The notes beneath the pieces were generated by a model, which had not been told where the DNA came from, made no database searches, and saw only the letters and a program-made list of their open reading frames with translations. A stretch of DNA of 64,000 nt, from positions 288,001 to 352,000 of the forward strand of contig CAVYHV010000014.1 in NCBI GenBank assembly GCA_963768425.1. Reading direction: 5' to 3'. The translations under genes were made by a program, and so were the position numbers. This document shows, piece after piece, positions 12,101 through 63,330 of this stretch. Position 1 is the first letter of the stretch. Each line of letters opens with the position of its first letter. Source of the DNA: Candidatus Bathyarchaeota archaeon (lineage in GTDB: Archaea > Thermoproteota > Bathyarchaeia > Bathyarchaeales > Bathycorpusculaceae).

Positions 12101-12242
12101 AGGGAGTCAAATAGAGTCGAATTGGGTCAAAATGGGTCATTAGGAGTCATAACAAGTCAAATAGAGTCAAATGGAGTCGCAACCTGCAAATGATTCAAGC
12201 TCCTCCACAAGGAAGCAGCCCAAAACACAAACAAAAAATTTT
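12101..12242 (+). repeat. phased array element copy A: 8 x 10-bp units with invariant GTC plus conserved ~60-nt tail
   Basis: agggaGTCaa atagaGTCga attggGTCaa aatggGTCat taggaGTCat aacaaGTCaa atagaGTCaa atggaGTCgc, then AACCTGCAAATGATTCAAGCTCCTCCACAA... Confidence 0.9.
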
Positions 12243-12266
12243 GCATTAAGAAAATGCTTTTTGGGT

Positions 12267-12749
12267 TTAAGCTAGGTAGACGGTTACGTTTCCATCTTTG
12301 TCTTTTGCTGCTCGAACCTTGATTTTTCTCGGAGGTTTCTCGATGCCTCTGTTCCAGATTCTCTGGTTAAGCTCCTGGCTTATTATGAGTCTAGGTAACT
12401 CTTCTTCTTCCTCTTCTTCGGTAACCTTCATCTCTAGTTTCATGTGCTTGGTGATGAAAATCTTGATCAATTGCATCGCTCGGGAAGCACGCTTATTCGG
12501 CGGCCTAACCAACGCTCTCCCCAATGGGATCGTGTAGGTTCGCTCTTCAACGATTTCTTCTTCTTCCTTCTTCTTGCGTTTAGGTTTAGCTTCCTCTTCT
12601 TCAGCAACAGCTTCCTCAGGCTTCGCTTCAGCCGTCGGCTCCCCAACTACTTCGGGAACTTGTTCCTCAACGGTTTCTTCTTCAGCAAGCGGCGGCAACT
12701 CTTCTTGTTCGGTGACTGTCTGCGTTTCTTTTTTGTCTTCACTAATCAT
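12267..12749 (-). CDS. rpl31e: 50S ribosomal protein eL31 with acidic N-terminal extension
   Basis: EERTYTIPL...KRASRAM...LNQRIWNRGIEKPPRKIKVR. Confidence 0.95.
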   Translation of the reverse strand: MISEDKKETQTVTEQEELPPLAEEETVEEQVPEVVGEPTAEAKPEEAVAEEEEAKPKRKKKEEEEIVEERTYTIPLGRALVRPPNKRASRAMQLIKIFITKHMKLEMKVTEEEEEEELPRLIISQELNQRIWNRGIEKPPRKIKVRAAKDKDGNVTVYLA

Positions 12750-12764
12750 CTACATCTACGTCTC

Positions 12765-12923
12765 CTATGCCTTTATCTTCCTTGTTCGCCAATTGCGCCT
12801 TTGCTTAGGGTTATTCCTAACTTTACCGTCAGTTCGGGCAATTACCCATGTGGGAACAGACGTTGCGATCTTGCCAGCTTTGGCTAATCGAAGCTTCTTG
12901 GCTGTTGGTTTAACTCGCGCCAT
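12765..12923 (-). CDS. rpl39e: 50S ribosomal protein eL39 (52 aa, missed by ORF track)
   Basis: Own translation [52 protein letters not shown]; canonical position before rpl31e. Confidence 0.95.
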
Positions 12924-12927
12924 ACTT

Positions 12928-13257
12928 TCATATCCTTCTAATTGTTGGTTCTCGCTTCCGTGATTGAAGCTGAATTAATATCTGTTTAAGCTGAGCATCC
13001 GACAACGGAATAGGCAACTTCCCTGTCTGCGCCATTTGAATCAGCTGCATCTCAATCTGCTCCGCAAAGTCCTGCTTAACCATCTTTAGGTTGTTTAGCC
13101 TCTGCTGAGCCTCAGGCGCCAATATCTTTCTTAACAGCGCCTGTTTCTGAGCATCTATCTGCGCTTCTTCTTGGCTTTGTCTTTGCTCGTCACTTACGCG
13201 ACGCTGCATTGACGATAACTTTCGTCTACGGATTTGGTCAAGCTCGTCATCCGACAT
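12928..13257 (-). CDS. PDCD5-like DNA-binding protein
   Basis: [12 protein letters not shown]...[20 protein letters not shown]; canonical neighbour of rps19e. Confidence 0.92.
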
Positions 13258-13262
13258 TGCGT

Positions 13263-13727
13263 CTATTCGCCTTGATACTTCTTCAGCGCAGGGATAGTCT
13301 TAACTACTTCTTTATGCAAGTCTCCAGCGACCTCTTGAAGCAACTTACGACCCTTAGGAGTCATCCGTCTACCCTGAGGCTTAGTGGTTTGAACCAAACC
13401 TGCAGTTTCAAGCTGCTGAAGAATCTTGCGAATGTTACTTCCACCGGCTTTAGTGGCATGCGATTTTTTAACGCCGTTATTTTTTCTTCCACCATAATCA
13501 GCCCGCAGCTTCTCAAGCCCGATTGGACCATGAACATAGACTTTCCGGAGAACAGACGCGCTTCTGGTGTACCACCAATTTGGGTTTTGCGGCTGTTTTT
13601 CAACGTGGGTACCTGTCTTAGCGAAGGCTGCCCAAGGAAGAGGCTGGACTTCATCAACGTTTTCCCTAAGATACTTTGCTAAACGATCGATGAACTTTGA
13701 AGATGGAACATCATGAGGAGTAGTCAA
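13263..13727 (-). CDS. rps19e: 30S ribosomal protein eS19
   Basis: WAAFAKTG...WWYTRSASVLRKVY...YGG; likely TTG start at 13727. Confidence 0.96.
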   Translation of the reverse strand: MTTPHDVPSSKFIDRLAKYLRENVDEVQPLPWAAFAKTGTHVEKQPQNPNWWYTRSASVLRKVYVHGPIGLEKLRADYGGRKNNGVKKSHATKAGGSNIRKILQQLETAGLVQTTKPQGRRMTPKGRKLLQEVAGDLHKEVVKTIPALKKYQGE

Positions 13728-13863
13728 GATTACTCTAATCCTTTGTTTTTCCTTGCAGTAAAACAATGAAGCCAAATATAAATATTCTCTGGGCAGGAAT
13801 TAAGGCTCACGCAAGACAACACGCCTCAAGTCAACTCAAGCAAGCTGAGTTTTCAGCGGCCTC

Positions 13864-14133
13864 CTAACGCACAGATGCATTCGCTTTCAACACGAAAACC
13901 CGCAGATCAATTCTTGACGGGCAAACATAAGTGCAGTTTCCACATCCCTCACAGAGGTCAACTCGAAGCTTCCGCAGCGTTTCCTTTTTGTTTTTCTCGA
14001 AAGCCTCTTTGATTAAGACTGGGCTCAGGTTGTGCGGGCAGGAACGCATACAGACGCCACATCGGATGCAAGCCACTGTTTTCTCCTGCTTACGAGGATT
14101 CTCAAGAGTTTGAGAGGCACCCATACGTTTCAC
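13864..14133 (-). CDS. 2x[4Fe-4S] ferredoxin resembling the RnfC C-terminal dicluster domain
   Basis: CIRCGVCMRSCP and CEGCGNCTYVCPSRIDL. Confidence 0.8.
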   Translation of the reverse strand: MKRMGASQTLENPRKQEKTVACIRCGVCMRSCPHNLSPVLIKEAFEKNKKETLRKLRVDLCEGCGNCTYVCPSRIDLRVFVLKANASVR

Positions 14134-14332
14134 TTTGAAAGCTGAAACATGAACGATAATTATATAGGTTTTTGCTACAGCAGAATTTTGTCACCTTTCA
14201 AACACTGAAGCAGGAAAGAGGCTTTTTGTTTCCCAAAACTATACAGACATTAAAACACCATGTGGTCGACTCTTTAGAAATGCTTATTACTTATCGCCGT
14301 TGATGTCTATTTGTAGATTCTGAAGGTTTTTT

Positions 14333-15363
14333 ATGTCTTCTGAGAAAAATCGGGCCTTATATTCTAGCGATTTCCAGTCCTACTGCAGCAACGCAAAAAA
14401 ACTTGTTGATTTTGAACTCCAAACGCTTCTGCCGGCCATCGCCAAGTTTAAGCTGCGAAAACAAATAGAGTACGCCCTACTGACCAAAGGGAAACGGCTT
14501 CGCCCCACTTTAGTTCTGTTGAGCGGGGAAAGCGCAGGCGGCAACCGAACGCAGCTTCGCAGGTTGGCGTTGGCTTTTGAGCTATTGCATTTAGCAACGC
14601 TTGTCCATGATGACATTTTGGATGAGGACACGTTCAGGCGAAATGCCCTGTCGGTTTATGCAAAATGGAGCGTTAAAGATGCTATTCTTGTGGGTGACGT
14701 TTTGGCTTCGTTTTCGCTGTCTTTGTGCAAGGGATACAGAAGGGAAATCCTCAACGTGATTATCGACACTTGCATGCAGCTTTCAGATGGCGAATACAGC
14801 GACGTAGAATTAGCCGGTGAAGAATTAAACGAAAAAGAGTACTTTGGAAAGATACAAAAGAAATGCGCAGCACTTTTCAGGGCAGCCTGCGAATGCGGAG
14901 CTCTTGCAGCCGACGGCTCATCCAGCGTGACTAGGCGTTGAGGCTTTTCGGCGAGAACTACGGTGTTGCTTACCAGATAAAAGACGACATACTGGACGCG
15001 CAGGAATGGGGGAACGATCTGCAACCCGACGTCAACAAGTTCCGAGCCACACTTCCAATAATACACGCGTACGAAACGGCTGGCAAAGAGAAGCAGGTGC
15101 GTTTCAGAAGGCTTCTTTCCGCAAAAACAACCCGGAACCTTAGTATTTTCCTAAGAGAAGTGCAGCCGTATTTTGAGAAAGGCTCCTTAAATTACTGCAC
15201 AAACCGATTAAACATGTACGTTGACAGGGCAGTTGCAAGTTTAGCGCCGTTGAAAGAAACCCGATTTAAAAGTTACCTCGTTGAGATGGCTGAGTTATTG
15301 AAGATGGAAGAACAAGAAGTCGGCATCCAAAAGATCGCTGCAGAAACCAGAAAGTTAACGTAG
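14333..15363 (+). CDS. trans-polyprenyl diphosphate synthase, probably medium/long chain (frameshift near 14935)
   Basis: GKRLRP, FARM LATLVHDDILD..RR, SARM YQIKDDILD in second frame. Confidence 0.88.
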
Positions 15364-15406
15364 AGACACTTTCTTTTTTTGTCATTTATACTGAGGATGA
15401 AAAATT

Positions 15407-16899
15407 TTGACTGGGAAGCTGCAGTTAGCTGGTGAAATTTATTCGGATGAGGCATCTTTGAAAGCCTACTCCACGGATATGAGCCACTACTCAGTTAAGC
15501 CTCAGATGGTTGCTGTCCCAGCAAACGAGCAAGACATCGCTAGGATAATCGCTTACGCAAAGCAAGAATCGATCCCTATCACCCCGCGTGGAGCAGGCTC
15601 TAACCAATCAGGCTCCGCCGTCGGACCAGGCATTATTGTTCTCTTCTCCAAAATGAACGCTATTGTTAAAAGGAATGGGCGTAGGGTTCGGGTTCAATCT
15701 GGCGTAATCCACAAGTTCTTGACCAGCAACTTGCCGCGGACGGGCTAAGGATCCCTTATGACCCCACGTCCCGTGGGTTTTGCACCATAGGCGGAAACGT
15801 CGCAACCAAGGCAAGCGGGGTCAGAAGCCTCAAATATGGGACGGTTGACTCGGCGCTAAGAAGCCTACGTTTCTTTGACGTCGCCCACGGGTTAATTGAT
15901 ACTCAAGGTCGCCTGCCCGAAACCGTTGAAGAAGCCATCGCTGACCTTAAGAAACGTCTTATTAGCGATAAAGAAGCGATGAGCGTCCTAAACGCTCGAG
16001 GCAACCTCAAATCCAGCAGCGGCTACAACCTGCGAAGCCTCATCCAATACCAAGAGCCAAACGAAATCGTGACCCATCTAATGGCTGGCTCGGTTGGTAC
16101 GCTGGGGGTTTTCAGCGAAGTAGAGTTGGAAGCAGTTCCCTTTCCCGAAAGCCGCATACTCTACATCGCCTTTTTCCGTTCCTTGACGGAAGCAGCCGAA
16201 GATGTGAAAAAGCTCATGGCAATCAAACCCTCAGCTGTCGAGCTCATGGATTCTTACGGAGTTGATTTGCTAAGAAAAACCAATGAAGTCAACGTTCCCC
16301 TTGATTGCAAGGCTGTTCTGTTTGTGGAATTAGATTCTGACTTAGAACAAACGAGTATTGCTATGATGAGTTATTTGAAGGAGAAACCACTGGAATTCTC
16401 GGTTGAAACTGATCCGAAAAAGCAAGCTGCGCTTTGGATGGTGAGGGAGTCGATGCTTCTTTGGATTATGAACTCGCTGGAAACGGCGCAAAAAAGGTTT
16501 CCGCCCTTTGCAGACGATATAGCTATACCAGTGCAGCAACTACCGAACTTCATAGCCGCCGTTCAACAGATATTGGATAGTTTTGGGACTATTGCAGTGA
16601 TTTACGGGCACGCAGGCGAAGGAAACCTACACATAAGGCCAATGATTAGCATTGAGAATTGGGAAGAAAACCTAAAAAAATTATCCAGCCTCATCTTCGA
16701 CGCAGCCCTAAAGGCAGGTGGAACCATAACGGCTGAGCATGGACTAGGAAGAAACAGGTCATTGTATCTTCGCAATGAGTGGGGAGACAAAATCTACCGC
16801 TATTTCTCAGAAGTAAAGAGGATTTTTGACCCCACAGGACTCTTAAATCCGGACGTGGTTTTCACGTCGGATGATCTAACAAAAAACCTCAAGTTGTAG
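15407..16899 (+). CDS. FAD-linked oxidase, GlcD/D-lactate dehydrogenase family (frameshifted near 15720-15780)
   Basis: PRGAGSNQSG, TIGGNVAT.ASG, GHAGEGNLHI, AEHGLGR, DPTGLLNP. Confidence 0.85.
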
Positions 16900-17087
16900 C
16901 CTTCCGCAAACGACACGGGTGTAGTGTGGCAACTACAACAAACCCTTTTATCGCTTGCTAAGCTCCTTTTTGAATGGTGTTTCCATGCGTTCTTATGAAG
17001 AAGTAGGCTACTGTAAGAGTTCCCTGAAGTCACACACCCTTTCAGACCCACAAACTCACCAATCTAAGCGACCAGGGGCTGAATAAA

Positions 17088-18311
17088 ATGGCAACCCAAG
17101 CACAAAAAACCGCGCCATCAACCACTAAAGACACTGGACTACGCGGAGTCCTCATCGCCGACACGGCAATCTCGCTTATCGACGGAGTAAAAGGCGAGCT
17201 TTCCTATCGAGGATTCGACATACATGATTTAGCTGCTTACTCAACCAGTGAAGAAGTCGCTTATCTGCTATTAAACGGCAACTTGCCAACAACGGCGCAG
17301 ATTGAAGAATTCTCAAAGACCCTTGTAACGGAAAGAAAACTGCCACCAAGCTTAGTTGAAGTTCTCAAAAAACTTCCCAGCTCAGCAGCACCTATGGATG
17401 TTCTGCAGGGAACAGTGGCTTTGCTTGCTGATTTTGACCCCGAAAAGCATGATGACTCAAAAGAGGCTAACCTGAAGCGTGCATCTCGACTAATAGCTGT
17501 GTTACCCACAGTGGTTGCGTTTTGGGATAGAATCAGAAAAAACCAGCCCCCTATCGAGCCGAACTCGAAGCTGAATAGGGCTGCGAATTTCCTGTACATG
17601 CTCTCAGGCAATGAGCCAGAGGAGGAGACAGCTAAGGATTTTGACACCTCGTTGGTCTTGCATGCTGAACACTCGTTTAATGCCTCTACTTTTGCCGCAA
17701 GGGTTGTGGCTTCAACGCGGGCTCACATGTACGCCGCAGTCAGCGCTGCCGTCGGGTCGCTTTCAGGCGAATTGCACGGCGGAGCGAACATGCAGGTTAT
17801 GAGGAACCTCGTTGAAATCGACGATCCAGCCAAAGTTGAAGCTTGGGTTAAAGCGAAATTTGACAACCATGAACGCATCATGGGCATGGGTCACGCAGTG
17901 TACAAAGCCTTAGACCCCAGAGCTGATTTGCTTCGGCACATCTCCGAGAAACTTGCGCGGCGAACAGGCGAACCGAAATGGTACCTAATGACTAAAGAAA
18001 TCGAATTTAACACTCAACGCGAGTACCGAGTGCGCAAAGGCGGCGAAATCTACCCTAACGTAGACCTATACAGCGCCTCCGTCTACCATATGCTCGGCAT
18101 CCCTGATGACTTGTTCACACCCATCTTTGCTGTAGCAAGAGTCCCAGGATGGGCAGCACACATTATCGAAGAAAAGTTTCCTGCGCCGCCGATTAAGCCT
18201 GAACTTTACCGCCCCAGCGCACAATACGAAGGCAACTACTGTGGAGCTGTAGGCTGCAAATACGAACCCATGGCTAAACGGGCAACAGAAAGCCAACAAC
18301 AAACAAAGTGA
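17088..18311 (+). CDS. gltA: citrate synthase / 2-methylcitrate synthase
   Basis: HAEHSFNASTF, LHGGAN, MGMGHAVYK, PNVD. Confidence 0.9.
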   Translation: MATQAQKTAPSTTKDTGLRGVLIADTAISLIDGVKGELSYRGFDIHDLAAYSTSEEVAYLLLNGNLPTTAQIEEFSKTLVTERKLPPSLVEVLKKLPSSAAPMDVLQGTVALLADFDPEKHDDSKEANLKRASRLIAVLPTVVAFWDRIRKNQPPIEPNSKLNRAANFLYMLSGNEPEEETAKDFDTSLVLHAEHSFNASTFAARVVASTRAHMYAAVSAAVGSLSGELHGGANMQVMRNLVEIDDPAKVEAWVKAKFDNHERIMGMGHAVYKALDPRADLLRHISEKLARRTGEPKWYLMTKEIEFNTQREYRVRKGGEIYPNVDLYSASVYHMLGIPDDLFTPIFAVARVPGWAAHIIEEKFPAPPIKPELYRPSAQYEGNYCGAVGCKYEPMAKRATESQQQTK

Positions 18312-18341
18312 CCAAAAAGTTTTCGCGCAGAGAGAAAGATG

Positions 18342-19076
18342 CTATCCAGAGGCACTGTTTTTTGGCCGCAGCTCATCCATGATTCTTTTTCTAATTTCCA
18401 TGATATGCTTTGTAACCTGAATAGATTTAGGGCAAACCACCGTGCATCGATAGTAAGATTTGCAGCTCCATGCACCATGCGGCTTATCCATAATTTGCAG
18501 GCGTTCAAGCATGTCTTTGATGCGGCTGTCAAAAATGTATCTGTGCGCCCTAACGATGGCGGCTGGCCCTACATAGCTGGGATCTTCTTTCTGGCTGACA
18601 GGGCAAGCAGAGACGCAACAGGCGCACATAATGCATTTGATGTCATCGTCAAACTGCGATCGCTCCTCAACCGTCTGCCGATGCTCTTTGCCTTCTTCTG
18701 CTGCCGTCAAGCTTATCCCCTGGGACGAGTGAACAGATTTTTCCTTCGCAAAAAACTCGTCCAAGTCCACCACTAAATCTTTCACGACGGGAAACACGCT
18801 AAGAGGCTCAATCAGGATTTCTTTGTCAACTGGATAGTCTTTCACAAGTTTTTGGCATGCCAAAGCTGAAACCCCATTGATCGTCATGCCGTCGGAACCG
18901 CAGATACCATGGGCGCAACTCATTCGGTAAGCTAAGCTTCCATCTTGTTCCCATCGAACCTTATTGAGGCAGTCAAGAAGCCTATCTGTTGATTTGGCGT
19001 CAACAACGAATAAGTCGTAACGTGGTTCTTTGTCAGCTTTAGGGTCGAACCGGAAGATTTTCAACTTGACGTTCAT
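18342..19076 (-). CDS. sdhB: succinate dehydrogenase/fumarate reductase Fe-S subunit
   Basis: SCAHGICGSD..LAC; CIMCACCVSACP; CKSYYRCTVVCPK. Confidence 0.93.
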   Translation of the reverse strand: MNVKLKIFRFDPKADKEPRYDLFVVDAKSTDRLLDCLNKVRWEQDGSLAYRMSCAHGICGSDGMTINGVSALACQKLVKDYPVDKEILIEPLSVFPVVKDLVVDLDEFFAKEKSVHSSQGISLTAAEEGKEHRQTVEERSQFDDDIKCIMCACCVSACPVSQKEDPSYVGPAAIVRAHRYIFDSRIKDMLERLQIMDKPHGAWSCKSYYRCTVVCPKSIQVTKHIMEIRKRIMDELRPKNSASG

Positions 19077-19077
19077 G

Positions 19078-20803
19078 CTAGTACTTCCTCGCTTTAGGTT
19101 CAAAACGAGTAATACTCACGGGTTTATACCGAGCTTCGAGTCCGTTGGCAGTGTGGAATATGAGTGAGTGCTTAAGCCAGACTTCGTCGTTGCGGCTGGG
19201 AAAGTCGTTGCGGAAGTGAGCTCCTCGGCTTTCTTCACGTTTCAGTGCAGAATAAACGATTACTTTTGAAAGCTTCAGCATATTATCGAGCTCAAGCGCT
19301 CCCTCAAGCTCATAGTTGAAAGATTTGCCACGGTAGCTGAGACCAAGATTAGCCGCTCTACCTTGAAGTCCCTGGATCCTGCTTAGAGCCTGCTCTAACC
19401 CCACTTTGTCGCGGAAAACGCTGCATAAGTGAGTCATCACTTTCTCCATTTCCACGCGTATCTCGGCAACACGTTCCTTTCCAGTAGAAGCCAGAAGGGA
19501 ATCTATTCTTGAAAAAACCATTTGCTCAGCATCTGCGTCAAGAGGGGTTTGAGAGGTTTCGCCGACATAATTCGCAATGTGCAGTCCGGCCCGTTTTCCG
19601 AAAACAACCAGATCAACCAACGAATTTGTTCCAAGCCTGTTGGCTCCATGAACACTTACGCATGCACATTCACCCGCCGCATACAACCCAGGAATGACAG
19701 CGGATTTTTCATCTGCAAGGACGCGTGCTTGAGCGTCAGTGGGGATGCCGCCCATCATGTAGTGACAGGTTGGCGCAACAGGAATCGGCGATTCGCTAGC
19801 GTCTATACCTAAGTAGGTCTTGACGAACGATGTGACCTCCGAGAGTTTCTGCTGCAACTGATCTTTGCCAAGATGCGTTAAATCCAAGTAAACGTAGTCT
19901 GAGCCTTCGATACCTCTGCCTTCGGCGACTTCGGTTAAAATGGCTCTGGAAATGATGTCTCTTGGCGCCAGGTCCTTCAGCGACGGCGCGTAACGTTCCA
20001 TAAACCGCTCGCCCTTGCCGTTACGCAACACGCCGCCTTCAGCTCGAGCCGCTTCGCTGACCAAGATGCCTAAACCGTGAATCCCAGTTGGATGGAATTG
20101 AACGAACTCCATATCTTCAAGCGGAACCCCCGCTTCAAAAGCCAAAGCGAAGCCATCTCCCGTAGCGGCAAAAGACATAGAAGTCGTTTGAAAGATTCTG
20201 CCGCAGCCCCCCGTAGCTAACAAAACTGCTTTCGCATGAAAAACCACCGATTCGCCCGTCGCCAACTCGTATCCCGAAACGCCGCAGCATCGTCCTTAAG
20301 GCATCAGAAGCGAGGTAACAAAGACTTCGTTGAATATTTTTACGCCTCGAACCATGCAGTGGTCGTAGAGCGTGTCCATAATAACGCGCCCCGTCCTGTC
20401 AGATGCATAGCAAGCCCTCTTCACAGGCGCCTCCCCGAAGTTTCTGGTGTGCCCTCCAAATCGTCGCTGCTCAATTGTTCCTTTCTCGTTGCGGCTGAAG
20501 GGTACGCCAAGATGCTCCAGCTCAATCACTCTCTCAGGGGCTTCCCGAGCCAGAATTTCAGCCATATCCTGGTCTGCCAAGTAGTCGCTTCCTTTCACTG
20601 TGTCAAACATGTGCCATTCCCAGTGGTCTTCCTCCTCATTTCCAAGAGCCGCCGCAATACCGCCTTGAGCCGCTCCACTGTGACTTCGAGAAGCATACAC
20701 CTTGCTGATGACAGCTACGTTGCAGGTTTCTGACGCCGTCAAGGGCAGCAGTCATGCCAGCAATGCCTGCGCCAACGATCACCACATCAAATTCATGAAT
20801 CAT
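19078..20803 (-). CDS. sdhA: succinate dehydrogenase/fumarate reductase flavoprotein (two frameshifts)
   Basis: DVVIVGAGIAG, RSHSGAAQGG (FAD-His), QFHPTG, HYMMGG, HGANRLGTNSL, ESRGAHFR across ORFs 20636-20824, 20296-20742, 19078-20265. Confidence 0.92.
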
Positions 20804-21923: not shown

Positions 21924-22090
21924 TGTTCATTTATTTCTTTCAGGTTGCCTTTCCAGTGCCCGCAGACCGGGCATCGCCAAGTTTGAGGAATTCCCTCCAA
22001 TTTCATGCTTGGCGGCAGCTCTGCTACTAAGTCGCCTTTTTCATCATCAAACGTAAAGCTCCTGCAGAACTCACACATAAACTTCAACAA
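21920..22090 (-). CDS. rubredoxin
   Basis: CEFC...FDDEKGD...PQTWRCPVCG; start uncertain. Confidence 0.85.
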   Translation of the reverse strand: MLKFMCEFCRSFTFDDEKGDLVAELPPSMKLEGIPQTWRCPVCGHWKGNLKEINEQ

Positions 22091-53041: not shown

Positions 53042-53056
53042 CTTTTTAGATCACGC

Positions 53057-53995: not shown

Positions 53996-54768
53996 TAATG
54001 TTCACGAAGAACAAGTGAAACCATGTTTTGAAAACCATTTTTCTCGGGAAGCTGGCGCTGATACCAATGGATGACCCGAAGCCTGTACGCTATTCCAAGC
54101 AAATCAATAAACATGTGCCCCATCTCTTTCGGCTTAAATTTAGCATCCAACTTGATGTTTACAGGCATCTCCACAACTTTCAAGCCATAAAGATTCGCGA
54201 CAGCCAGCAACTCAACGTCAAAAGCATAACGTTTCACAGCCAATCTGGGGAAAACATCGATAAATGCACTTTTCCTCATTGCTTTAAGCCCAGACTGGGT
54301 ATCTTTAAGAGGCACCCCAGTAAGAAAACGAACTAAGCCATTGAAGACTTCGCTCAAAATTCTTCGAGACACGGGCACTTCCACTTGTGAATCACTATGC
54401 TTTTTAGAAGCTATAACAATGTCACCGTACTTCAGAGCATCAAGATATTTCGAAATAGTTCTCAAGTCGATTTCCATGTCGCCATCAGCAAAAATCACGA
54501 CGTTCCCGTTGGTTTGCATAAAACCAGTCTTCACAGCATGCCCTTTACCCACGTTCTCGCTGTAACTTACCACTTTGACATGACCGTTTCTCCCAGCGTA
54601 TCTCCTTGCTTTTGCCAAAGTGTCATCTCTGCTGCCGTCATCAACTACCACAATTTCATATGGCAAATTCTTGTCCTTGATAACTGCATCTATTGTTCCG
54701 AGCGTGTCCTCAATGAAGTCTTCCTCATTGTATGCTGGAATAACAAAAGATAATTCTACTTGCTCCAT
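53995..54768 (-). CDS. GT2, dolichol-phosphate glycosyltransferase-like (DPM/DPG synthase family)
   Basis: VIPAYNEE, VVDDGSRDDT, NVGKG, FADGD, DTQSGLK, FDVELL. Confidence 0.88.
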   Translation of the reverse strand: MEQVELSFVIPAYNEEDFIEDTLGTIDAVIKDKNLPYEIVVVDDGSRDDTLAKARRYAGRNGHVKVVSYSENVGKGHAVKTGFMQTNGNVVIFADGDMEIDLRTISKYLDALKYGDIVIASKKHSDSQVEVPVSRRILSEVFNGLVRFLTGVPLKDTQSGLKAMRKSAFIDVFPRLAVKRYAFDVELLAVANLYGLKVVEMPVNIKLDAKFKPKEMGHMFIDLLGIAYRLRVIHWYQRQLPEKNGFQNMVSLVLREH

Positions 54769-55031
54769 TAAACAGCCACCTCATCATTGTTTTTTCCGCG
54801 ATATTTCAGAAAGCTGGCAAGTTGAAGAAAAACTCCAGCGACCAAGGCATAATACGCGTAAACGGCTACATTGTCAGCTAAGGAAGACAAGCCTGCAGAC
54901 AAAGAAACAGCGGCAACAATCAAAAGAAACATGAACCCTACTATAAAGGGAGAGCCCCAATTCTCCTTAACGTATCCTTTGACTTTAATCATAATCTTAT
55001 TGAAGCCGATTTGTGTCATATTGCAGAGCAC
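54768..55031 (-). CDS. small two-TM membrane protein
   Basis: ENWGSPFIVGF...ADNVAVYAYYALVAGV; stop overlaps next start. Confidence 0.7.
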   Translation of the reverse strand: MLCNMTQIGFNKIMIKVKGYVKENWGSPFIVGFMFLLIVAAVSLSAGLSSLADNVAVYAYYALVAGVFLQLASFLKYRGKNNDEVAV

Positions 55032-55211
55032 ACTGTTCTTATGTCTTAAGAGCGAAGCTCAGAATTTAACGTTTGCCATAATCTCGGAACACACAATAAA
55101 AGTTCCAAACTTTAGACGACAAATGATTAGACGCTTGCAATTTTGAATTATCGTTTGAATATTTTAACATTATTAATATGCATCACAGCCAAGAAGATTG
55201 CGAACGAAGAA

Positions 55212-55490
55212 TCAAATGCCCAACTCGCCAGCAGAAATATTTCCTAACTTCTGAGCTGTGAAACTGATTTTTTGAGCCAAAGGCAAACCAATTCTCCTCA
55301 AACGACTTGAAAAGCTGCTTTTCATAGCATCTTCCAGCTTCCTTGTGAGCACAGCGATGCTTTTTGCTAACTTTGCACTTCGGATGTTATCTACAACTCT
55401 TATTGTTAAATCAAAGAGTACTCTGTCTATTCTTTGCAATGCTTTGAACCATGCGCCAGAACGCATAGCTTTAGTTTTCAGATTCACCAA
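55212..55490 (-). CDS. basic hypothetical protein (both ends probably affected by frameshifts)
   Basis: KAMRSGAWFKALQRIDR...VVDNIRS; in-line with glycan operon. Confidence 0.6.
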   Translation of the reverse strand: MVNLKTKAMRSGAWFKALQRIDRVLFDLTIRVVDNIRSAKLAKSIAVLTRKLEDAMKSSFSSRLRRIGLPLAQKISFTAQKLGNISAGELGI

Positions 55491-55720
55491 TTGTTTTTTA
55501 TTAAGGAAGCGGAAACCATCGCTATTAAGTACATACTTTAGACATTATGTTTTCATTCTCGCCCTGTTTTTATCAACATCTGTTTAATGATATTTATGAA
55601 TTGTGCATTTAAGTGAAAATTGTGATATTTCAAAATTAAGATGAACGATGTTTTTATGAAAAAAATTGTTAATATCGATCGTGAAGAATTTGGAGTCATC
55701 ATGTTTCAATCTTACATTAG

Positions 55721-57241
55721 TTAATTTGAAGTATAGCTGTAGATGGCGATTTTTCCACTGCTGGTAGACTTCGTGAAATGACGAGGGCAAAGTTGGTAGG
55801 TCATACCATCCTTGTCCATTTACCCACCATATTAGGTATATTTGCGTATGCCCTTCTTGAGCAGCCGTTATTGCCGCATTGACGGGGTCGTCAAATCCGT
55901 AGTTCATAACCTGATTACTATTGAGCGTTAACAATGCCCAACCATAAAACACTGTATGCGTAAGCAAAAGTGCGTTGCTATTCAAGTTATCTTTGAACCA
56001 TTGCAGAGCGTTGACCGTGTCATGACAGTCGGTTATCGGTATCGTATTCTGCAACATCGAGGTTGGAATTTGATATGAGTAATTGTTGAAATGTTCTGGA
56101 TTAAAGTAAAAGAAAGGCTTTTCCGAATTCATAAATATAAAACCAAAGCTTAGAATAGCCGTTGATAAAACAAGGTATAATATCGCAATTCTGTGCACGG
56201 TTAATTTGAAACGTTTCCATTTGATTGATTTGAGCCTGCTTAGAGCATCCGTCGCATAAAATGCGAGCGGATACGTAAGCAGTAATACCCAGCGATAAGG
56301 GCTTACAGAAGAAGTGGGGATAAACAGCAAAATAAAACTCAAGAGAAGCCAAGACCTGAGTTGAAGATTCCCAAATCGCCAAAGACCCACAACCACCAAG
56401 GGCAGCAGAGGCAAGAAACAATACAAGAAGAAACCCCCTTCACTTATCAACATAGATTGATAGGAAGCAAAACCAGTCCAAGTGGCCAAAGGTGATGCAT
56501 TTGTTGAGTAACCAAGAACGCCAGACTGCGCCACACCACTTAAATAAACGATGACAAAATAAACCGCCGCAGGCAAAGAAACAACAACCAGATCAATTGA
56601 CCACTTAAAATCTTTATGGAACAAGCTATAGGCAACTGTACCAATGATAGCCCCAAACATAAGTACCGCTACAAGCTGATGAGATAACACGACTGCCATA
56701 ATCGCTAAAGAAAGAACAACATAACTTTTCCAAGAACTATCCTTTCGGTTGATAAGCACATAAGCATGTAAGGACAACAAAAAAGAAAACTAAACCAAGC
56801 TCTTCTCGAAGTTGATCCCAAGAGGCTCTTAAAGCCACAAAATAAACTGTTCCTAAAACAGCAACAAACGTGCTCTTGAGAAGGACCAGCTCAAGCCTCT
56901 CTTAGCAAAAAAATATATTGATAACCCCAAGAAACCGAGAAGCAACGGCGAAATTATCTTAATCAAAAAACCGGCGATCCACCAGCACTAACTAATGTCA
57001 TATAGATCGCGTAGAATAGTGGGGCTATCTGAAAGGAAAGCCCATAAGTTTACGCCATTATGTAGCCATAACAAGTGTATTTGGAACATAAAATGCCATG
57101 AGTATCGAAACCAAGCATGTATGGGCCCATTAAGATCTCAGGTATAGTCCTCACGATTAAGGGTACGATAAATGCTAAAAGCGCGAAGATCATGGGATGA
57201 TTACCAGTCCAACGTTTTATGGGATTAGTAATCCAAGTCAC
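55721..57241 (-). CDS. polytopic membrane protein, GT-C-like (multiple frameshifts)
   Basis: N-terminal RTIPEIL.GPY..GFDT, many TMs, SHQ, YRW; ORFs 57050-57241 and 55584-56780; alternative end SGKIAIYSYTSN*. Confidence 0.65.
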
Positions 57242-57274
57242 CTTTTAATTCTCCAAGCACGCCAAAATGTGGAT

Positions 57275-57442
57275 TTACTTTATTAAACTTTGGTTCAAAC
57301 CTAAAATGTTTTGTGCTTTGCGAATGCTTTGGGGGTGTTTGCGTCTGCTCTTTATGGCGGTGTATATGATTGAGCCGTTATACAGCGTCCAGAAAAGCAG
57401 AAAGACCAGCAGAACAATGGAGATAATATCGACTATTATCAT
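57275..57442 (-). CDS. small single-TM protein (55 aa), possibly an N-terminal gene relic
   Basis: Own translation MIIVDIISIVLLVFLLFWTLYNGSIIYTAIKSRRKH... Confidence 0.35.
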   Translation of the reverse strand: MIIVDIISIVLLVFLLFWTLYNGSIIYTAIKSRRKHPQSIRKAQNILGLNQSLIK

Positions 57443-57881
57443 TTTGAAGCCGGTCCCATTAAAGATTTAACATAAGTTAAAACTGTAAATTCAAGCACCA
57501 TGCAATCTTCATTCTTAAGGCTCTGAAATAATGTTGAGAGGCAAGTCCCCAACTTCATTAGTCATGTTTTTCGCGAGACCAACTTGCATTTCTTGTTTAC
57601 AGCCCATTATTGATTTTAGTACTTTTAAGTCTTGTTTATGGATACTCACTTTTCAAGCTATAACCACATGTTTTAGAACGCCAAAATAAGAAATTATTTT
57701 AAGAAACCAAACATCAAGGAGGAAAGAAAATGATCGCTTGAAAACAATTCAGTAGCGAATATTATTTGAACTATAGTCTTAAATGAGCCTTCAGCCTACA
57801 ATGTATTTATTGGTCTCAGTATAGTATGAGTATGCTCTATGAGATTGAATCGTCCAACATTACAAAGGAAGGTCTTCCAAA

Positions 57882-59413
57882 ATGAGGCACAGGTTGATTC
57901 ACCGTAAAAAAAACACGTCCATTCTTCAACCTCATTCAGTTCCTCTGGAAGAACCTCTTCGCCTTAAGCACAAAAGTTTTTTCCCCCGGCAGATCCACTG
58001 GAAACTTAACAAGAAAGCAAAATGCCTTATAGCCTCAGCGGTCATAGCCCTCGTATTAGTTTCTTTTTTCGCAGTCTTATACTTGGAGAACAAACCCAAA
58101 GCAGATGCAGCCATCATACCTCAAAAAGATAACTCAACCAGTACAACTACCCCGACCTCCAGCCCAAATTCCAAAAGCAAAAGCTCAGGAGGCTCACTTT
58201 CCAACTTAAGCGGTTTGATAAACGGGATAAGCCAAGCAATCCAGAATGCAGTTGGAGACCAGACTAAGCCCCACGGGCATAATCGAGTCTGCGCAAACCA
58301 TCAACAGCACCGTTTGGAAGCAGGTAGCAGCAGCTGCGTGGTCATTTTTCCAACCTGGCATCGGAGTCGACAGTAATACTGGGCTACCCTACGGTGGGGG
58401 CAAAAGCTTCCCTGATTTCACCGATTGGGATTTAGGCGTCTACATCCAAACCGTTATTGACGCACAGAAAATAGGTTTAATAAGTGCCACGGGCGCATGG
58501 GGCGCAAACGACCGAATAGATAAGGTTTTAACGTTTCTGGAAACTCGACCGCTGAATGATACAACCCATTATCCTTTCTGGTTCTACGACGCAACAACAG
58601 GACAAGATGATCATTTAGAATCAGACAACTCCACTGCGGTTGTTGATATCGTTGATACAGGAGTTCTGTTTGTCGCCCTCAACAATCTCCGCGTTTTTGA
58701 CAGCACCTACGCCGAGCAAGTAAACAACATAGTGCTTAACGAATCTGCAAATCAAAATGGTGGATCAAATTATGCCGCCTTGCTGCCTAACATAGTGAGC
58801 ACCGCTGATTCAAACAGCATTTATGCGTACTTGTTCACTAGCGGCTTTGCAAGTTTCTGGCCTTCAGATAAATTATGTTCCCACCGATATTCTAAACAAC
58901 ATCATAAATTCGCCGCCAGTTACAAGCCCCTACGGCAACGTCACGTTGCCGGTGCTCCAGTCACCTGCGACCCACTTCTGTTATCAGTCTTCAACCTCAA
59001 CGATAGCAATGAATTGTCAGGTTACATGAACCAAGTCTATTTGGCTCATGAAGCGTATTACAACGCGACCAACAACTACGTGGCTTTCAGCGAAGGAAAC
59101 AGCCAAGAAAACGGCTATATATACGAGTGGGTAGTTGCACCCAACGGCAGCATGTGGCAAGTAACAAACGAGGCACAAACCGTATACTACACATCTGATA
59201 TTATTATTTACACCAAGGTAGCCTTTAGTTTCTTAGCCCTTATACAACTCGACTTTTGCAAGAAACATGGTTGTCTTCCTTGAAAAACAACTTCCTACAC
59301 CTACAGCTGGCTACTACGCCGGCTATAGTTATTCGGATGGCGCAGATACGGCGATAGATCCTAACACAAACGGCTTAATCATCCAAGCCGCACTTTACGC
59401 TATCCAAAATTAA
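57882..59413 (+). CDS. membrane-anchored secreted DUF3131-like protein (frameshifted)
   Basis: TM + Ser/Thr linker; AWSFF...TGLP...TDWDLGVYI, PFWFYD, DIVDTG, AFSEG, YTKVAF, NTNGLIIQAA. Confidence 0.65.
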
Positions 59414-59786
59414 CCAACAAACACTTGCATAAATAGTTTCAAATCTGCATATAAATGTTGAACATCTTTTGACGTGACCCACAATTTCAGGATTTTCCTT
59501 TCGGTCTCCGTCCAGACCAAATCCTTAATGACTCTATCTTATGCTTAATCTTCAATTTATTTGAAGATCGGCCCCAAAACGCAAAGAAAAAACTGCCTTA
59601 ATCTCAGGCAAATATACTGCTAAAAAAGACTTTGTCAATTTAAAAATTGATAGTGTCTGAACTCAGTCATGAACTCGATCAAATTGCTTGGTAGAATCGC
59701 ACATAGAAACGCCATATGAATTATGGCTTGACTTAAGAGCCACACTAAATAAACCAACTTTTTCTTGTTTTTCAAATAGAAGCTGA

Positions 59787-62700
59787 GTGAAATCAATATT
59801 TATGATTCATAACTGTCTTATTATCAACTCAATCACTAAAACTGGGGATAGAATAATACAATACCTCAATCAGAACGGAATAGATATAGAAGCATCTGAT
59901 TTGGTTTCTTCAAACAAGAAGAACATTATTCGAGTTTTGCATGTTGACGATGATCCGTGCATTCTGGAAATCTCAAAACAGATTATGACGGACATGGATG
60001 CCAGCCTCGAGTTTGATGCGCCTGTTGCGTGGATGAAGCCTTCAAGAAACTATCAAGCTGGACAATACGATATTGTTATTTCTGATTATGAGATGCCCCA
60101 AAAAGATGGACTTCAGTTTCTAAAAGAGTTACGAGAACAAAAGAATCAAATTCCCTTCGTACTATTTACGGGCAAAGGCAGAGAAGAAATAGCGATAAAA
60201 GCTCTAAACCTTGGCGCAGACGGATACTTCACCAAGCATGGATCCCCCGAAACAGTGTATGGAGAACTATGTCACGGATTAAAAATGGCGGTAACACGCA
60301 AAGCAACCGAAGCTGCGTTATTTGAAGCACAGACCCTGACAAATTCCATCATTAACAGCACAAAAGACATGATTTGGTCTGTCAGTGCTGATGATTTTCG
60401 TCTTCTCACATTTAACAAAGCGTTAAGCGACTATTTCTTCAGAACCCAGAATTTGACCATCAAAGAAGGCATGAATTCATGAAGATATCATGCCAACTGA
60501 ACAACTCGCCCATAGATGGAATGAACTTAACAAACGAGCATTGAAGGAGGGCTCATTCACAATCGAATACACGACCTTGAAGGAGCCAAGGGTTTTGGAA
60601 TTGACTTTTGATCTCCTAAAACGTGGGAACGAAGTTTTTGGAATTGCCGTGTTTGGAAAAGATATTACTGAACGCAAAAAAAATGAAGAAATCGTGAGAA
60701 AAAGTGAGGCGAGATATCGAGAACTAGCCAACTTTTTGCCAGAGATAGTTTTTGAAGCGGACTTAACCGGCAAAATTACTTTTTTCAGTCAAAGAGCTTT
60801 CGAAGAAACCGGTTTTACGGCAGAAGAACTCGAAAAGGGCATAAACATGCTTATCATTCGTTGTTCCAGAGGAACGAGAAAGGGCAAAAGAAGCAATCAA
60901 AAAAGCCTTAGCAGGCGGAGACAGAGCGAGGGCCACAGATACATGCTTTACAAAAAGAATGGTCTTTCTTATCCCGCGATTGTCAAAACGGCTGCTATCA
61001 TTTCCGGAAACAAAGTGACAGGGCTAAGAGGGTTAGTTATAGACTTGACGGAAAGCGAAAAGAATGAAGAAGCTTTGCGGAAAAGTGAGGAGCGTTTTCG
61101 TCAATTTGTGTTGTCCTCTCCAGACACAATGCATCTGCTTGATCCCAGTATCACATAAGGTGGAGTTCCTTAACCGTAAGGAGTTTTTGGGCTATTCTTG
61201 CAAAGAGTTAGAAGCAGCTAATTCAATTTTGCCTTATCTCCATCCCGACGATCGCGAATTAGTGCAAGCGGTGTTATCAGCTCGCTCTTGAAAGGCAGTC
61301 CTGATGGACAAAAACCCATTGAATATCGTCTGAAAAACAAAGCTGGCAATTGGGAGTGGATTAGAAGCCGAGCAACCATATTAAAGTACGATAATCAGGG
61401 CAAGCCTGAGCAAATATTGATGACGCTAACCGTAGTTACTGAAAGCAAAAAAGTTGAAGAGTCACTGAAAGAAAGCGAGGAAAAATTCAAGAAACTGGCA
61501 GAGGAATCGCCTAACATAATTTTCATCAACAATGCGAGGAAGAGTAGTTTATGCTAATAAAAAATGCGAAGAGATCACAGGGTACAGTAAGGAAGAATTG
61601 TATTCGCCTAATTTTGATTTTCTTTCTCTTAATCCGCCAGAGTATGTTGATGCAGTAAAGTCTGCCTATGGAAAGCATTTGAGGGGCGAAACGGTCCCTC
61701 CGTATGAGTATGCACTCATCACTAAAGATGGAAAAAGAATTAATGCAATAATCAACACGTCGCTCATAGAATACGACGGCGATAAGGCTATACTTGGAAT
61801 TGTGACGGATATCACTGAACGTAAGAAAGCGGAAGAGGCTCTTAGGCAAGAGCGGGATATGCTTGAATCAGTTGCGAAAGCCAGCGGTGCCGGTCTAGTA
61901 ATTGTCAGTAAAGATTTCCATGTGCTATGGGCAAATGACTTCATAAAACGCTACAAAGGCGATACTATAGGAAAACTATGTTATGCAACGCTTAACAGTT
62001 TGGATAAGCCTTGCTCTGATTGTGGTGTAGCAAAAGTTTTTGCTGGAAAAACAACTCTTGATTCCCACGAGTACTGCTCTACAACTGTCGATGGCAATCC
62101 GTATTGGGTCGAAATAGTGGCTACGCCTCTTTTGGATGAGAAGGGAAACATCACGTCCGCAGTGGAGATTTGTGTGGATGTAACTGAACGCAAGAAGAAC
62201 GAAGAGAAGCTAAGAGAAAGTATTCATAGAAACGAATTGATCAATGAGAAACTTCAGGTTGTTGGCAGTTTGACTAGGCATGATGTGGGCAATAAACTCA
62301 TGGTTGTAAAATCAAATATCTATTTGCTTAAGAAACAAATTGGAAACGATCCCAAATTAGCTAAGTACTTTGAAGCCATTGACTCTGCAATTAAGCATTC
62401 TGATAAAATGTTTGAGTTTAGCCGTATTTACGAGAAAATCGGAGTAGAAAAACCCTCAAGAACAGATGTTGCCGAAAGCTTCAATCAAGCTGTTGCCCTT
62501 ATGCCAAACTTGGGCGCAATAAAAATCGTTAATGACTGCTATGGTTTAGAGGTTAATGCCGATTCATTGCTCAAGCAACTTTTTTATAACTTTCTAGACA
62601 ACTCGCTGAAGCATGGCGAAAAAGTCACGCAAATACGTCTGCATTACGCTAAGGATTGTGAGGGAGTGAAACTTTTCTATGAAGATAATGGAGTTGGTGT

Positions 62701-62869
62701 GCCAGAAGCCAATAAGCCCAAGCTTTTTGAGATTGGCTTTACCACTGGTAAAGGCAGTGGTCTTGGATTGTATTTGATAAAGAAAATGATGGAAGTCTAC
62801 GGATGGACAATTAGTGAAGATGGTGAACACCGTAAAGGAGCAAAATTCAAATTAACCATTCCAAATTGA
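59787..62869 (+). CDS. hybrid sensor: receiver + multiple PAS + histidine kinase (several frameshifts)
   Basis: LHVDDD...SDYEMPQKDG...FTGKG; repeated DITERK; RHDVGN, NFLDNSLKHG, EDNGVG, GSGLGL. Confidence 0.9.
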
Positions 62870-62920
62870 CGCTGAAAACCTAAAATTCGGATTAAAGCAT
62901 TTTTTGGCACGCAATTTTTT

Positions 62921-63075
62921 AACGGTAGAAGACGTTAAAGAATGTTAACGGACGTCTGAAGACTTTAAGCGACGTTAAAGGACGATAAGTGACGTTAGTG
63001 ACTTTAAAGGACGGATGCTGCAGATGATTAAAGTCCTGTTTCAAAAAAGCAACCCAAAAAACAGAGCAAAAAATC
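62921..63075 (+). repeat. phased array element copy B: 10-bp units with GAC core plus homologous tail
   Basis: GAC at 62931, 62951, 62961, 62971, 62981, 62991, 63000, 63010; tail CTGCAGATGATTAAAGTCCT...AAGCAACCCAAAAAACAGAGCAAAAAAT. Confidence 0.85.
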
Positions 63076-63185
63076 TTCTTTTTAACCCACTCTATCCTTA
63101 AACCGAGCTTTCTGGAGCATGCCTCTGAAGGTCACTCTTTAATTTAATGGCATATAGATTCAAGATTTTTATGTTGACTTATAGC

Positions 63186-63330
63186 ATTTAGAGTCGAAAC
63201 AAGTCTTTTGTAGTCTTAACCAGTCAATTGGAGTCAAATCTAGTCAGATATAGTCTTTAGGAGTCGCAACCTGCAAACAATCCAAGCTCCTCCACAAAAA
63301 AGCAATCTGAAACACAAACACAAAAAATTC
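63186..63330 (+). repeat. phased array element copy C: 8 x 10-bp units with invariant AGTC plus conserved tail
   Basis: AGTC at 63192, 63202, ... 63262; tail GCAACCTGCAAACAATCCAAGCTCCTCCACAA...AAACACAAACACAAAAAATT closely matches copy A. Confidence 0.9.

Follow-up and report, generated by a model that had tools for sequence, protein, structure and literature searches.

Three array-tail cassettes in the window

The window analysed here, a 64,000-nt stretch of a Candidatus Bathyarchaeota archaeon genome, contains three cassettes (A, B and C) in which an array of ten-base units leads into a conserved tail. The features of these copies and of the genes flanking them are listed below by position in the window.

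12024..12069, minus strand: copy A stump, decayed 5' end of a small regulator gene, start codon lost (limits approximate, set by eye against intact gene starts)
12100..12179, plus strand: copy A array, eight units of ten bases with free spacers, the box (A/G)GTC occupying unit positions 6-9
12180..12242, plus strand: copy A tail (tail model, 63.6 bits, E=9.6e-19)
12267..12749, minus strand: flanking ribosomal protein L31e gene, named from reading of its translation
62925..63013, plus strand: copy B array with the box GAC[GT], about nine units of which one has 9 nt
63014..63076, plus strand: copy B tail, a variant starting GATGCTGCAG (63017-63076: 52.8 bits, E=2.3e-15)
63105..63153, minus strand: copy C stump, regulator gene start reading M-P-L-N-stop, then truncated by the copy B tail
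63187..63266, plus strand: copy C array, eight units, each carrying the box AGTC
63267..63329, plus strand: copy C tail (49.6 bits, E=2.2e-14)
63355..63978, minus strand: flanking MBL-fold hydrolase-like gene, converging on copy C, named from reading of its translation

Scanning the window with the tail model returned exactly these three tails and one 21-nt partial match (59573-59593, E=0.008), and Tandem Repeats Finder reported period 10 at 12104-12178 and 62931-63013. The arrays of A and C abut their tails directly. As the preliminary description had noted, GTC recurs every 10 bp in all eight units of both A and C, at a constant unit position in each, and copy B lies in tandem with C. Its placement of A and C close to the stop of a minus-strand gene was correct, but the cassettes do not begin there: it is their tails that end 25 nt (copy A) and 26 nt (copy C) from the stop codons of the L31e and hydrolase genes, respectively. 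The L31e gene is the last of a row (S19e, a small protein, L39e and L31e, named from their translations) that converges on copy A. Both A and the B-C pair are sited between gene ends, with no promoter there in need of regulation. The weaker block shared upstream of A and C (63107-63138 in the latter) proved to be real, lying inside the copy C stump, and corresponds, in reverse complement, to the first part of a 92-aa gene that diverges from the array. The best reading of these features is that A and C are orphan cassettes retaining a gene stump, and B an orphan without one.

A many-copy cassette family in peat-soil Bathyarchaeia

Initially described as a three-copy element, the window copies are members of a many-copy cassette of peat-soil Bathyarchaeia. 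The 2.96 Mb genome (G000) carries 62 tails (nhmmer, E<=0.01) to 67 tails (covariance model, E<=0.001), grouped in 41 clusters, and extending the suggested tail-profile scan to the genus detected tails in 19 of 36 genomes, with per-genome copy numbers between 0 and a maximum of at least 86. Each copy comprises 3-16 ten-base units, most commonly eight, with a 4-5 nt box (GTC, GAC, AACG or others) in fixed register and free spacers, leading into a conserved A/C-rich module of about 60 nt with the core TGCA...CAAG...AAGCAACCCAAAAC.

The regular expression (G[TA]C.{7}){5,}, proposed in the preliminary description, matched 58 times in the genome, in 58/58 cases at most 260 nt from a tail, and returned 0 matches in each of five shuffled genomes. 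The 10-bp register is also seen across the family: mean period-10 autocorrelation across the 62 copies was 0.60, against 0.254 (sd 0.061) in 20000 random 70-mers, and 49/62 exceeded the 99.9th percentile of the random values. Conversely, 41 of the 42 period-10 regions in the genome are accompanied by a tail. Chance is excluded as the origin of this periodicity. The paralogous arrays differ in their box words (GACG, GACT, GTCT, GTCA/GTCG, AACG, TACT and GCTT). Five of the six larger box classes include an intact gene with that box in its own array; no intact gene was found in this genome for the GATG class (8 copies).

A linked small regulator gene and its predicted fold

Seven intact genes encoding proteins of 89-103 aa are divergent from arrays in this genome, and truncated stumps are present at further copies. 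The complete cassette runs from the tail through the array and a gap of 12-45 nt to the regulator start codon on the opposite strand. Array and tail were detected upstream of the regulator gene in 29 of 30 genus loci, the remaining one being cut by a contig end after the boxes, and in 54 of the 63 metagenome loci with enough flanking sequence. The copy B tail variant with GAC boxes also precedes an intact gene in one metagenome locus (L337), and in further families of the class, homologues were seen by eye to be preceded by short arrays with a tail-like motif. Among 36 same-genus genomes, tail and gene were both present in 17 and both missing in 14, with 3 presenting the gene only and 2 the tail only, one of these through a single weak match. 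Roughly 85-90% of cassettes are gene-less (7 intact genes among 62 cassettes in G000; 10 intact-looking genes and 6 stumps among 115 external copies), and something besides autoregulation must therefore explain their number.

The AlphaFold2 model of the regulator (pLDDT 92, pTM 0.82) presents a duplicated strand-strand-helix-strand unit, and the protein is confidently predicted to form a single-chain swapped-hairpin barrel. The best Foldseek match was PhS018 of Pyrococcus horikoshii (PDB 2GLW; E=4.9e-6, TM 0.72 over 96 columns, 23% identity), an uncharacterised single-chain AbrB-like barrel likewise of 92 aa, and the same entry was the sole PDB profile match below 0.01 in sequence searches (2glw_A, E=0.006, residues 8-73). 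MraZ structures, including MraZ on a four-box promoter, were also matched by Foldseek (E=4e-3 to 2e-2, probability 0.89-0.99, TM 0.44-0.50). A search of the seven proteins against Pfam with hmmscan (E<=1) returned no MraZ or AbrB family, the sole match being a sub-threshold DUF7905 in one protein, and a genome scan with PF04014 yielded 15 matches elsewhere and none among the seven regulator genes. Since Pfam is silent for all seven proteins, the assignment to a family depends on the fold together with a single weak profile match. Three relatives bear a JGI name of PrlF type. AbrB, MazE, AbrB-type VapB and PrlF proteins are dimers of one half-barrel and are usually encoded beside a toxin gene. 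The swapped-hairpin DNA-binding fold and the autoregulation of the own promoter would be shared with them, as predicted here, but the Bathyarchaeia protein is modelled as a barrel formed by a single chain, and its gene has no conserved partner downstream (seven G000 genes and flanking ORFs).

The (A/G)GTC boxes of A and C match those preceding the sole intact paralogue of their class in the genome (G000:C14:47877-48161, outside the window), and the copy C array is a unit-by-unit homologue of the array at this gene-linked copy (G000:C14:48271). GTC is present in 8/8 units of the gene-linked array also, and comparison with it revealed 0/24 box differences in both copies, as opposed to 15/56 spacer differences in C (p=0.004) and 30/56 in A (p=1.5e-6). 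Units are conserved position by position among paralogous copies. This conservation suggests that the boxes of orphan arrays are under selection, and with boxes invariant and spacers diverging the core of the earlier proposal, that the units form a putative protein-binding track along a single helical face and are not the product of slippage, holds.

The residue preceding the first [VI]Q[VI]P motif of the regulator tends to follow the box, with R accompanying GAC[GT], K accompanying GTC[GA], T or A accompanying AACG, and N accompanying TAC; exceptions are K with GACT, GACG and AACG. On a tree of 78 proteins, at least 26 changes of box are counted. The association comprises only two supported independent pairs (sign test, p=0.5-1) and could be due to shared ancestry.

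Candidate roles of the arrays

As described in PMC12957436, MraZ binds four GTG(G/T) boxes at 10-bp spacing (boxes of 4 nt separated by 6 bases) upstream of its own gene, cooperatively and with one subunit per box. Direct boxes every 10 bp upstream of the regulator's own gene are also observed here, and a single chain with two swapped-hairpin halves is predicted by AlphaFold2 and Foldseek, so that the MraZ box array provides a described analogue for an element first thought to have none. In bacteria, MraZ-type box arrays are known from one locus per genome, at which MraZ heads the dcw cluster and is followed by rsmH. In contrast, the archaeal host carries dozens of paralogous cassettes with different boxes and a constant tail, most of them gene-less, and no dcw or rsmH locus is associated with them: the neighbours of the seven G000 regulator genes show no relation to one another or to members of the dcw cluster, as judged from reading their translations and from all-against-all BLAST. 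The protein is also shorter (92 aa against about 150 aa) and without a Pfam MraZ match, and the arrays are longer (3-16 boxes against 3-4).

By analogy with MraZ, we consider that the arrays are probably operators of a diversified family of single-chain swapped-hairpin regulators. The 4-5 bp boxes, exactly one helical turn apart, would each be bound by one molecule of the 92-aa PhS018/MraZ/AbrB-like regulator, and these molecules would sit along a single face of the DNA with cooperative binding, like MraZ on its four boxes. The order of tail, array, gap and divergent start codon suggests that the regulator would control its own gene. The family has split into paralogues that differ in the boxes of their arrays, and most cassettes, A, B and C included, are orphans left by gene loss. 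The product of the intact paralogue could still occupy the boxes of A and C in trans, which would make them additional sites, decoys or roadblocks. The constant association of array and tail runs against a simple operator, which does not predict it. Also weighing against the operator reading are the position of A and B-C between gene ends, the predominance of gene-less cassettes and the GATG class with no intact gene in G000.

A bolder and rather doubtful version posits lineage-specific 'programmable' DNA recognition, in which the 92-aa barrel would read the box through a few hairpin residues, paralogues and arrays would have co-diversified in pairs, and the cassette would be transposable or copy-pasted. 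Gene-less arrays would here be dedicated high-avidity landing pads, dozens per genome, with the shared tail as a nucleation or partner-binding module; at gene ends they might block transcription or insulate, or they might help to organise the chromosome.

The predominance of orphans, their patchy copy number within one genus and their clustering in groups of 2-5 units on one strand are also features of a selfish, MITE- or SINE-like non-autonomous repeat, for which the gene-bearing form would be a mere parent element, array and tail would have been spread by some mobilising activity or by recombination, and orphans would have no cellular function. The cassettes resemble MITEs in being short, numerous, intergenic, patchily distributed among species and related to a gene-bearing form. 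Composite junctions recur, with pairs of the B-C type also at C25:46201/46420 and C29:27907/27590; the B-C pair is missing downstream of the orthologous hydrolase gene in 4/4 relatives, and elements follow L31e in both orientations among species. In relatives the element is present or absent after L31e and after the hydrolase gene, with flanks too diverged or rearranged to define its edges, and no alignable empty site at which to look for target-site duplications was found. Against this reading, copy A has no terminal inverted repeats (0 inverted pairs of at least 10 nt in 11950-12300) and copy B has only a 24-nt, A/T-rich pair (71%), which lends no support to the earlier suggestion of a mobile element end. 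Furthermore, no transposase, integrase or other recurrent neighbour was found in 285 ORFs flanking cassettes, no conserved motif was found downstream of the regulator gene, and the conservation of orphan boxes relative to spacers is unlike that of neutral relics. We regard a purely selfish origin as unlikely.

Sequence-independent structural DNA, in which phased A/T tracts bend the helix or position histones or another nucleoid protein and boxes are incidental, would account for the exact 10-bp period, for the pairing of about five A/T-rich with about five mixed bases in most units, and for the many box words that serve. Pure bendability, however, predicts the opposite of what is observed, namely GTC and GAC letters that are invariant while A/T-rich spacers drift, and arrays with AACGGG or AGTCGCAG units are not A/T-rich. 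The histone-positioning signal considered in the preliminary description should follow histone genes and lie in base composition; histone-fold genes are near-universal in the genus (97/100 genomes), whereas tails occur in about half of the genomes and track the regulator gene. This explanation appears quite improbable, as does one in which the cassettes are a family of small non-coding RNA genes, or the array acts as RNA in a long structured leader of the regulator mRNA. Consistent with an RNA role, one strand of the tail is rich in A and C and the other has oligo-T runs, which would stop archaeal transcription, and 15/36 gene-linked copies carry a TATA-like word inside a near-palindrome of the tail; together with a ribosome-binding-like purine run seen by eye ahead of the start codon, this would place the array in a transcribed leader. 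Yet Rfam 15 returned no matches at gathering score over the window and, for 11650-12300, none at E<=1, the RNAalifold prediction for 31 tails contains 0 pairs, cassettes show no orientation bias with respect to flanking genes (12/10/10/9), and the link between TATA-like word and gene seen in G000 (4/7 against 2/55) is absent from the external set (1/10 against 16/105). Centromeres of the parC type and iterons typically contain phased direct repeats, and in ParR-parC iterons and omega-protein heptad arrays of plasmids a small DNA-binding protein cooperatively coats rows of adjoining short direct repeats. Those proteins have a ribbon-helix-helix fold and differ in repeat length and role (plasmid partition or copy control), and the arrays described here are chromosomal and numerous. 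A centromere-like (parS/parC) site or iteron origin, as initially entertained, is barely credible for some 62-67 dispersed copies per genome, which lack any recurrent partition-like or initiator-like neighbour in flanking ORFs and are missing from 17/36 same-genus genomes.

If the arrays are operators, MraZ-like logic would recur in an uncultured archaeal lineage, amplified there into a diversified family. The consulted passages of PMC4333400 name no DNA target for PhS018. A genuine pairing of paralogues and boxes would give the uncharacterised PhS018-like proteins a first candidate target. Such pairing would also constitute a natural series of matched protein and box variants on a 92-aa scaffold, of use in studying how swapped hairpins read DNA. 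Searches of the open-access literature found no report of these intergenic repeats, and the papers returned on Bathyarchaeia and AbrB were off-topic by title and abstract. The orphan arrays raise the question of whether, in archaea, arrays of regulator sites at gene ends have a roadblock, decoy or architectural role. In annotation, the cassette family accounts for about 60 conspicuous repeats between genes in each genome of a Bathyarchaeia genus that is widespread in peat and soil.

Cassette anatomy and genome-wide distribution

The three copies detected in the window (C14:288001-352000), named A, B and C, share a cassette organization, in which a row of 10-base units (the array) carries boxes of 4-5 nt and is accompanied by a conserved, A/C-rich tail of about 60 nt. 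Copy A is located past the final gene of a ribosomal-protein row, and the B-C pair between two converging genes.

Cassettes of the window
12100-12179, copy A array: eight 10-base units, with GTC at one fixed unit position in 8/8
62925-63076, copy B: GAC[GT] boxes in about nine units, then a diverged tail, in tandem with C and preceding it
63187-63266, copy C array: eight 10-base units, with GTC at one fixed unit position in 8/8

The preliminary description of a phased 10-bp array followed by a conserved tail in A and C was correct, with all other unit positions varying and the array abutting the tail without a gap, and the tandem placement of B and C was likewise borne out. The weaker block reported to be shared upstream of the arrays is real, and corresponds to the reverse complement of an ORF start (M-P-L-T-R-K-V-T-F...). 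It is hence coding sequence, and a long-range pairing between this block and the tail, suspected by eye, was abandoned for this reason. Scanning with a tail model identified the tails of A, B and C as the only ones in the window. A second, decayed tail suspected by eye at about 11954-11996 yielded nothing at E<=1, and a partial match of 21 nt, to the model's A-rich end (59573-59593, E=0.008), is likely due to chance, since no array adjoins it.

The proposal of a three-copy element did not hold at the genome level. The 86-nt tail of copy A retrieved about 20 clear relatives within the assembly (2.96 Mb in 33 contigs), and the family comprises 62 tails by iterated nhmmer and 67 by a sequence-only covariance model. 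These cassettes form 41 clusters of one to five units, with a single strand used within any cluster, and the period-10 array lies on the same side of the tail in every copy. Mean lag-10 autocorrelation was 0.60, versus 0.254 for random genomic 70-mers, with 49 of 62 copies above the 99.9th percentile. A genome scan with the regular expression suggested in the preliminary description, (G[TA]C.{7}){5,}, returned 58 matches, all of them beside a tail, and none in five shuffled genomes; among 42 period-10 regions of whatever sequence, all but one adjoin a tail, which is the best-conserved part of the cassette.

Arrays contain 0-16 recognisable units, most commonly eight (12 copies) or six (11 copies), and when the units are read in the tail's register, conservation falls on the final 4-5 letters of each 10-mer. 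Boxes fall into several classes (GTCA in 18 copies, GACG in 10, GATG in 8, GACT in 7, GTCT in 5 and GCTT in 3). The order seen in B and C, in which a GTC-box unit comes after a GAC-box unit and the junction to a gene remnant is identical, recurs on contigs C25 (46201-46484) and C29 (27530-27909). The C29 copy contains at least 16 near-identical tail-adjacent units and differing distal ones, which suggests a recent expansion on the tail-proximal side.

A pattern scan of species-representative genomes identified at least 114 stretches. Among the 80 matches listed, 73 carried a Candidatus Bathyarchaeota or Bathyarchaeia MAG title (isolate labels included bog and SPRUCE), and the other seven were single matches in unrelated bacteria, mostly with another gap length and one extending over more than 6 kb. 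Of 36 further genomes of the genus, 19 were positive with the tail model and contained 1 to at least 86 copies each; among 24 genomes belonging to other families of the order only one was positive, through a single match (E=9e-4).

Association of the cassettes with a small regulator gene

The block upstream of the arrays belongs to a small gene (the regulator gene, 92 aa) that is divergent from the array in complete cassettes. A full gene of 89-103 aa occupies this position at seven copies of the genome, and further copies retain only its 5' remnant, or stump. In copy C the stump reads M-P-L-N-stop and is then interrupted by the tail of B, and in copy A it is decayed and, as judged by eye, has lost its start codon. 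Cassettes lacking the gene (orphans) outnumber complete ones by about 8:1, and all but one of the six larger box classes of this genome include an intact gene.

Elsewhere in the genus, array and tail lie directly upstream of the gene at 29 of 30 loci, and at the remaining one the contig ends after its boxes. A recognisable tail was present at 54 of 63 metagenome loci with enough flanking sequence, most of the others presenting boxes and a tail-like motif. Across the 36 same-genus genomes, gene and tail occurred together in 17, both were missing in 14, and two had only the tail and three only the gene, counts that are not independent because these genomes are relatives. Of 301 genomes searched, the one studied here among them, fifteen from outside the genus carry gene homologues. 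By eye, those in other families of the class present short box rows, with a best lag-10 autocorrelation of 0.40-0.72, and a tail-like core (TTAAGC ... GAAAAGCA).

Between the array and the regulator start codon lie 12-45 nt, and no conserved motif or conserved boundary was found 3' of the gene. A tRNA-like sequence was noted by eye directly after the intact gene of a five-unit cluster (C10:27767-27990). A TATA-like word within a near-palindrome occurs in 15 of 36 gene-linked tails. In this genome it was found in 4/7 gene-linked versus 2/55 other tails, but the proportions in an external set (1/10 versus 16/105) indicate that the link to the gene is not general, and a role of the tail as the promoter of the regulator was thus rejected. 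In the AACG/AGTC subfamily, the TATA-like word adjoins the gene instead of lying in the tail.

Predicted protein fold and proposed box recognition

Pfam searches returned nothing for the seven proteins, and 58 database relatives carried no names except for three PrlF-type labels, the few organism names given being all Bathyarchaeia. The AlphaFold2 model, based on a 39-sequence alignment (pLDDT 92, pTM 0.82), presents a duplicated strand-strand-helix-strand unit. The second half of the protein contains the sequence K-D-G-R-I-x-I-P, which may resemble the D-x-x-x-R signature of MraZ. The top structural match was PhS018 of Pyrococcus horikoshii (2GLW, E=4.9e-6, TM 0.72), also matched by the sequence profile (2glw_A, E=0.006), followed by MraZ (E=4e-3 to 2e-2), including its structure on its four-box promoter. 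PMC4333400 presents PhS018 as an archaeal protein that is uncharacterised and related to the AbrB-like swapped-hairpin fold. For MraZ, PMC12957436 describes cooperative binding by four subunits, each contacting one box in the major groove, and repression by MraZ of its own operon, with transcription starting within the first box.

In the mechanism that we propose, one single-chain barrel would bind each box, the 10-bp spacing would place all bound barrels on one face of the DNA, and binding would be cooperative along 3-16 boxes. Complete cassettes would in this manner mediate autoregulation of the divergent regulator gene, and at some loci the array would have to overlap the core promoter. The roughly eightfold excess of orphans and the constant presence of a tail beside the arrays fit this scheme poorly, and the tail, although the best-conserved part, has no assigned place in it.

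A tendency links the box to the residue just before the first [VI]Q[VI]P motif, with R accompanying GAC[GT], K accompanying GTC[GA], T or A accompanying AACG and N accompanying TAC; D in the protein's second half gives way to A or S with GT boxes. The tendency persists, with exceptions, in 42 further non-identical loci. The protein tree provides two well-supported independent residue-box contrasts, for which a sign test is underpowered (p 0.5-1). With so few independent contrasts and a test far from significance, the tendency is no more than compatible with specific recognition.

Orphan cassettes, alternative explanations and neighbouring sequence

The boxes of A and C, (A/G)GTC, are those of the array preceding the intact gene at C14:47877-48161, to which the C array is homologous unit by unit. 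Relative to this array, C presents 0/24 differences in boxes and 15/56 in spacers (p=0.004), and A presents 0/24 and 30/56 (p=1.5e-6). The persistence of boxes in copies that lack the gene, against diverging spacers, thus argues for continued use of the orphans. The GAC[GT] boxes of B resemble the arrays of intact genes on contigs C8 (where a GAC-box paralogue occupies 120024-120323) and C10, and its tail variant precedes an intact gene at a metagenome locus (L337). As no promoter is needed where A and B-C lie, these cassettes could conceivably serve as roadblocks, decoys or architectural elements.

A selfish repeat, an RNA gene, and a centromere or origin were considered as alternatives. Turnover of cassettes, which bears on the first of these, is real: cassettes after the ribosomal-protein gene L31e, which converges on A, are patchy (8/30 loci; 7/29 in relatives) and occur in both orientations, and B-C is missing at the orthologous gene in 4/4 relatives. 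These relatives carry another gene beside this position, and the empty-site comparison yielded no alignable counterpart. The histidine-kinase gene beside B (61532-62869) is not the neighbour of the MBL-fold hydrolase gene (63355-63978) in any of the four, which places the B-C pair at a gene-order break. Against a selfish repeat, orphans have spread without a visible engine, with no inverted ends at A and just a 71% A/T-rich pair at B, and no recurrent neighbour family or enzyme gene was found among 285 flanking ORFs. Regarding an RNA gene, RNAalifold placed no pairs in 31 tails, revealing no consensus RNA structure, and Rfam gave no match in the whole window at gathering score or in 11650-12300 at E<=1. 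Metatranscriptome contigs (four runs, three studies) cover a neighbouring 94-aa gene, a hairpin region (about 11832-11928) and ribosomal-protein genes; 11970-12264 lies outside them, a gap that is uninformative because the contigs derive from relatives that are 90-99% alike.

A further alternative was bent or histone-positioning DNA, the latter raised in the preliminary description. The histone reading is weakened the most, because a histone family is present in 97 of 100 other genus members, whereas arrays track the small regulator gene. The PF00808 histone fold had no match in the genome studied here (91% complete), but the same prevalence led us to discard a histone-less genome as explanation, and the missing histone is probably an assembly gap.

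Two further readings of the tail were set aside. The frames of its T-rich strand are open merely through absence of A and, by eye, present no conserved start codon, and among 19 clusters with a converging gene only four have its stop codon within 33 nt, which led us to reject a terminator of that gene. The T-rich strand could still act as a transcription terminator, which leaves the conserved non-T letters unaccounted for. Across the 41 clusters, cassettes showed no preferred orientation with respect to the genes on either side.

Several minor features accompany the cassettes. Four mutually related methyltransferase-like ORFs, recognised by reading the translation (C14:104124, C17:92357, C29:11799 and C6:262896), each lie less than 3 kb from a different cassette, which may be chance. 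No tRNAs were found within the window. A conserved non-coding block at 11805-11935 forms a long, imperfect hairpin, after which the + strand has ACA and a T run, with minimum free energies of -38.4 kcal/mol (z -1.8) on the + strand and -49.2 (z -2.3) on the - strand. It also adjoins L31e in three related genomes (G035, G004 and G031), is covered by RNA contigs of two runs (X2 and X5), had no Rfam match at E<=1, and may represent an H/ACA-like or other small RNA. Lastly, the L31e homologue (12267-12749, - strand) has a long acidic extension at its N terminus, some 70 residues rich in E and P, which relatives share (51-84% identity, 160 aa), and RNA contigs contain joints skipping 103-137 nt within this repetitive part, which are probably strain length variants.
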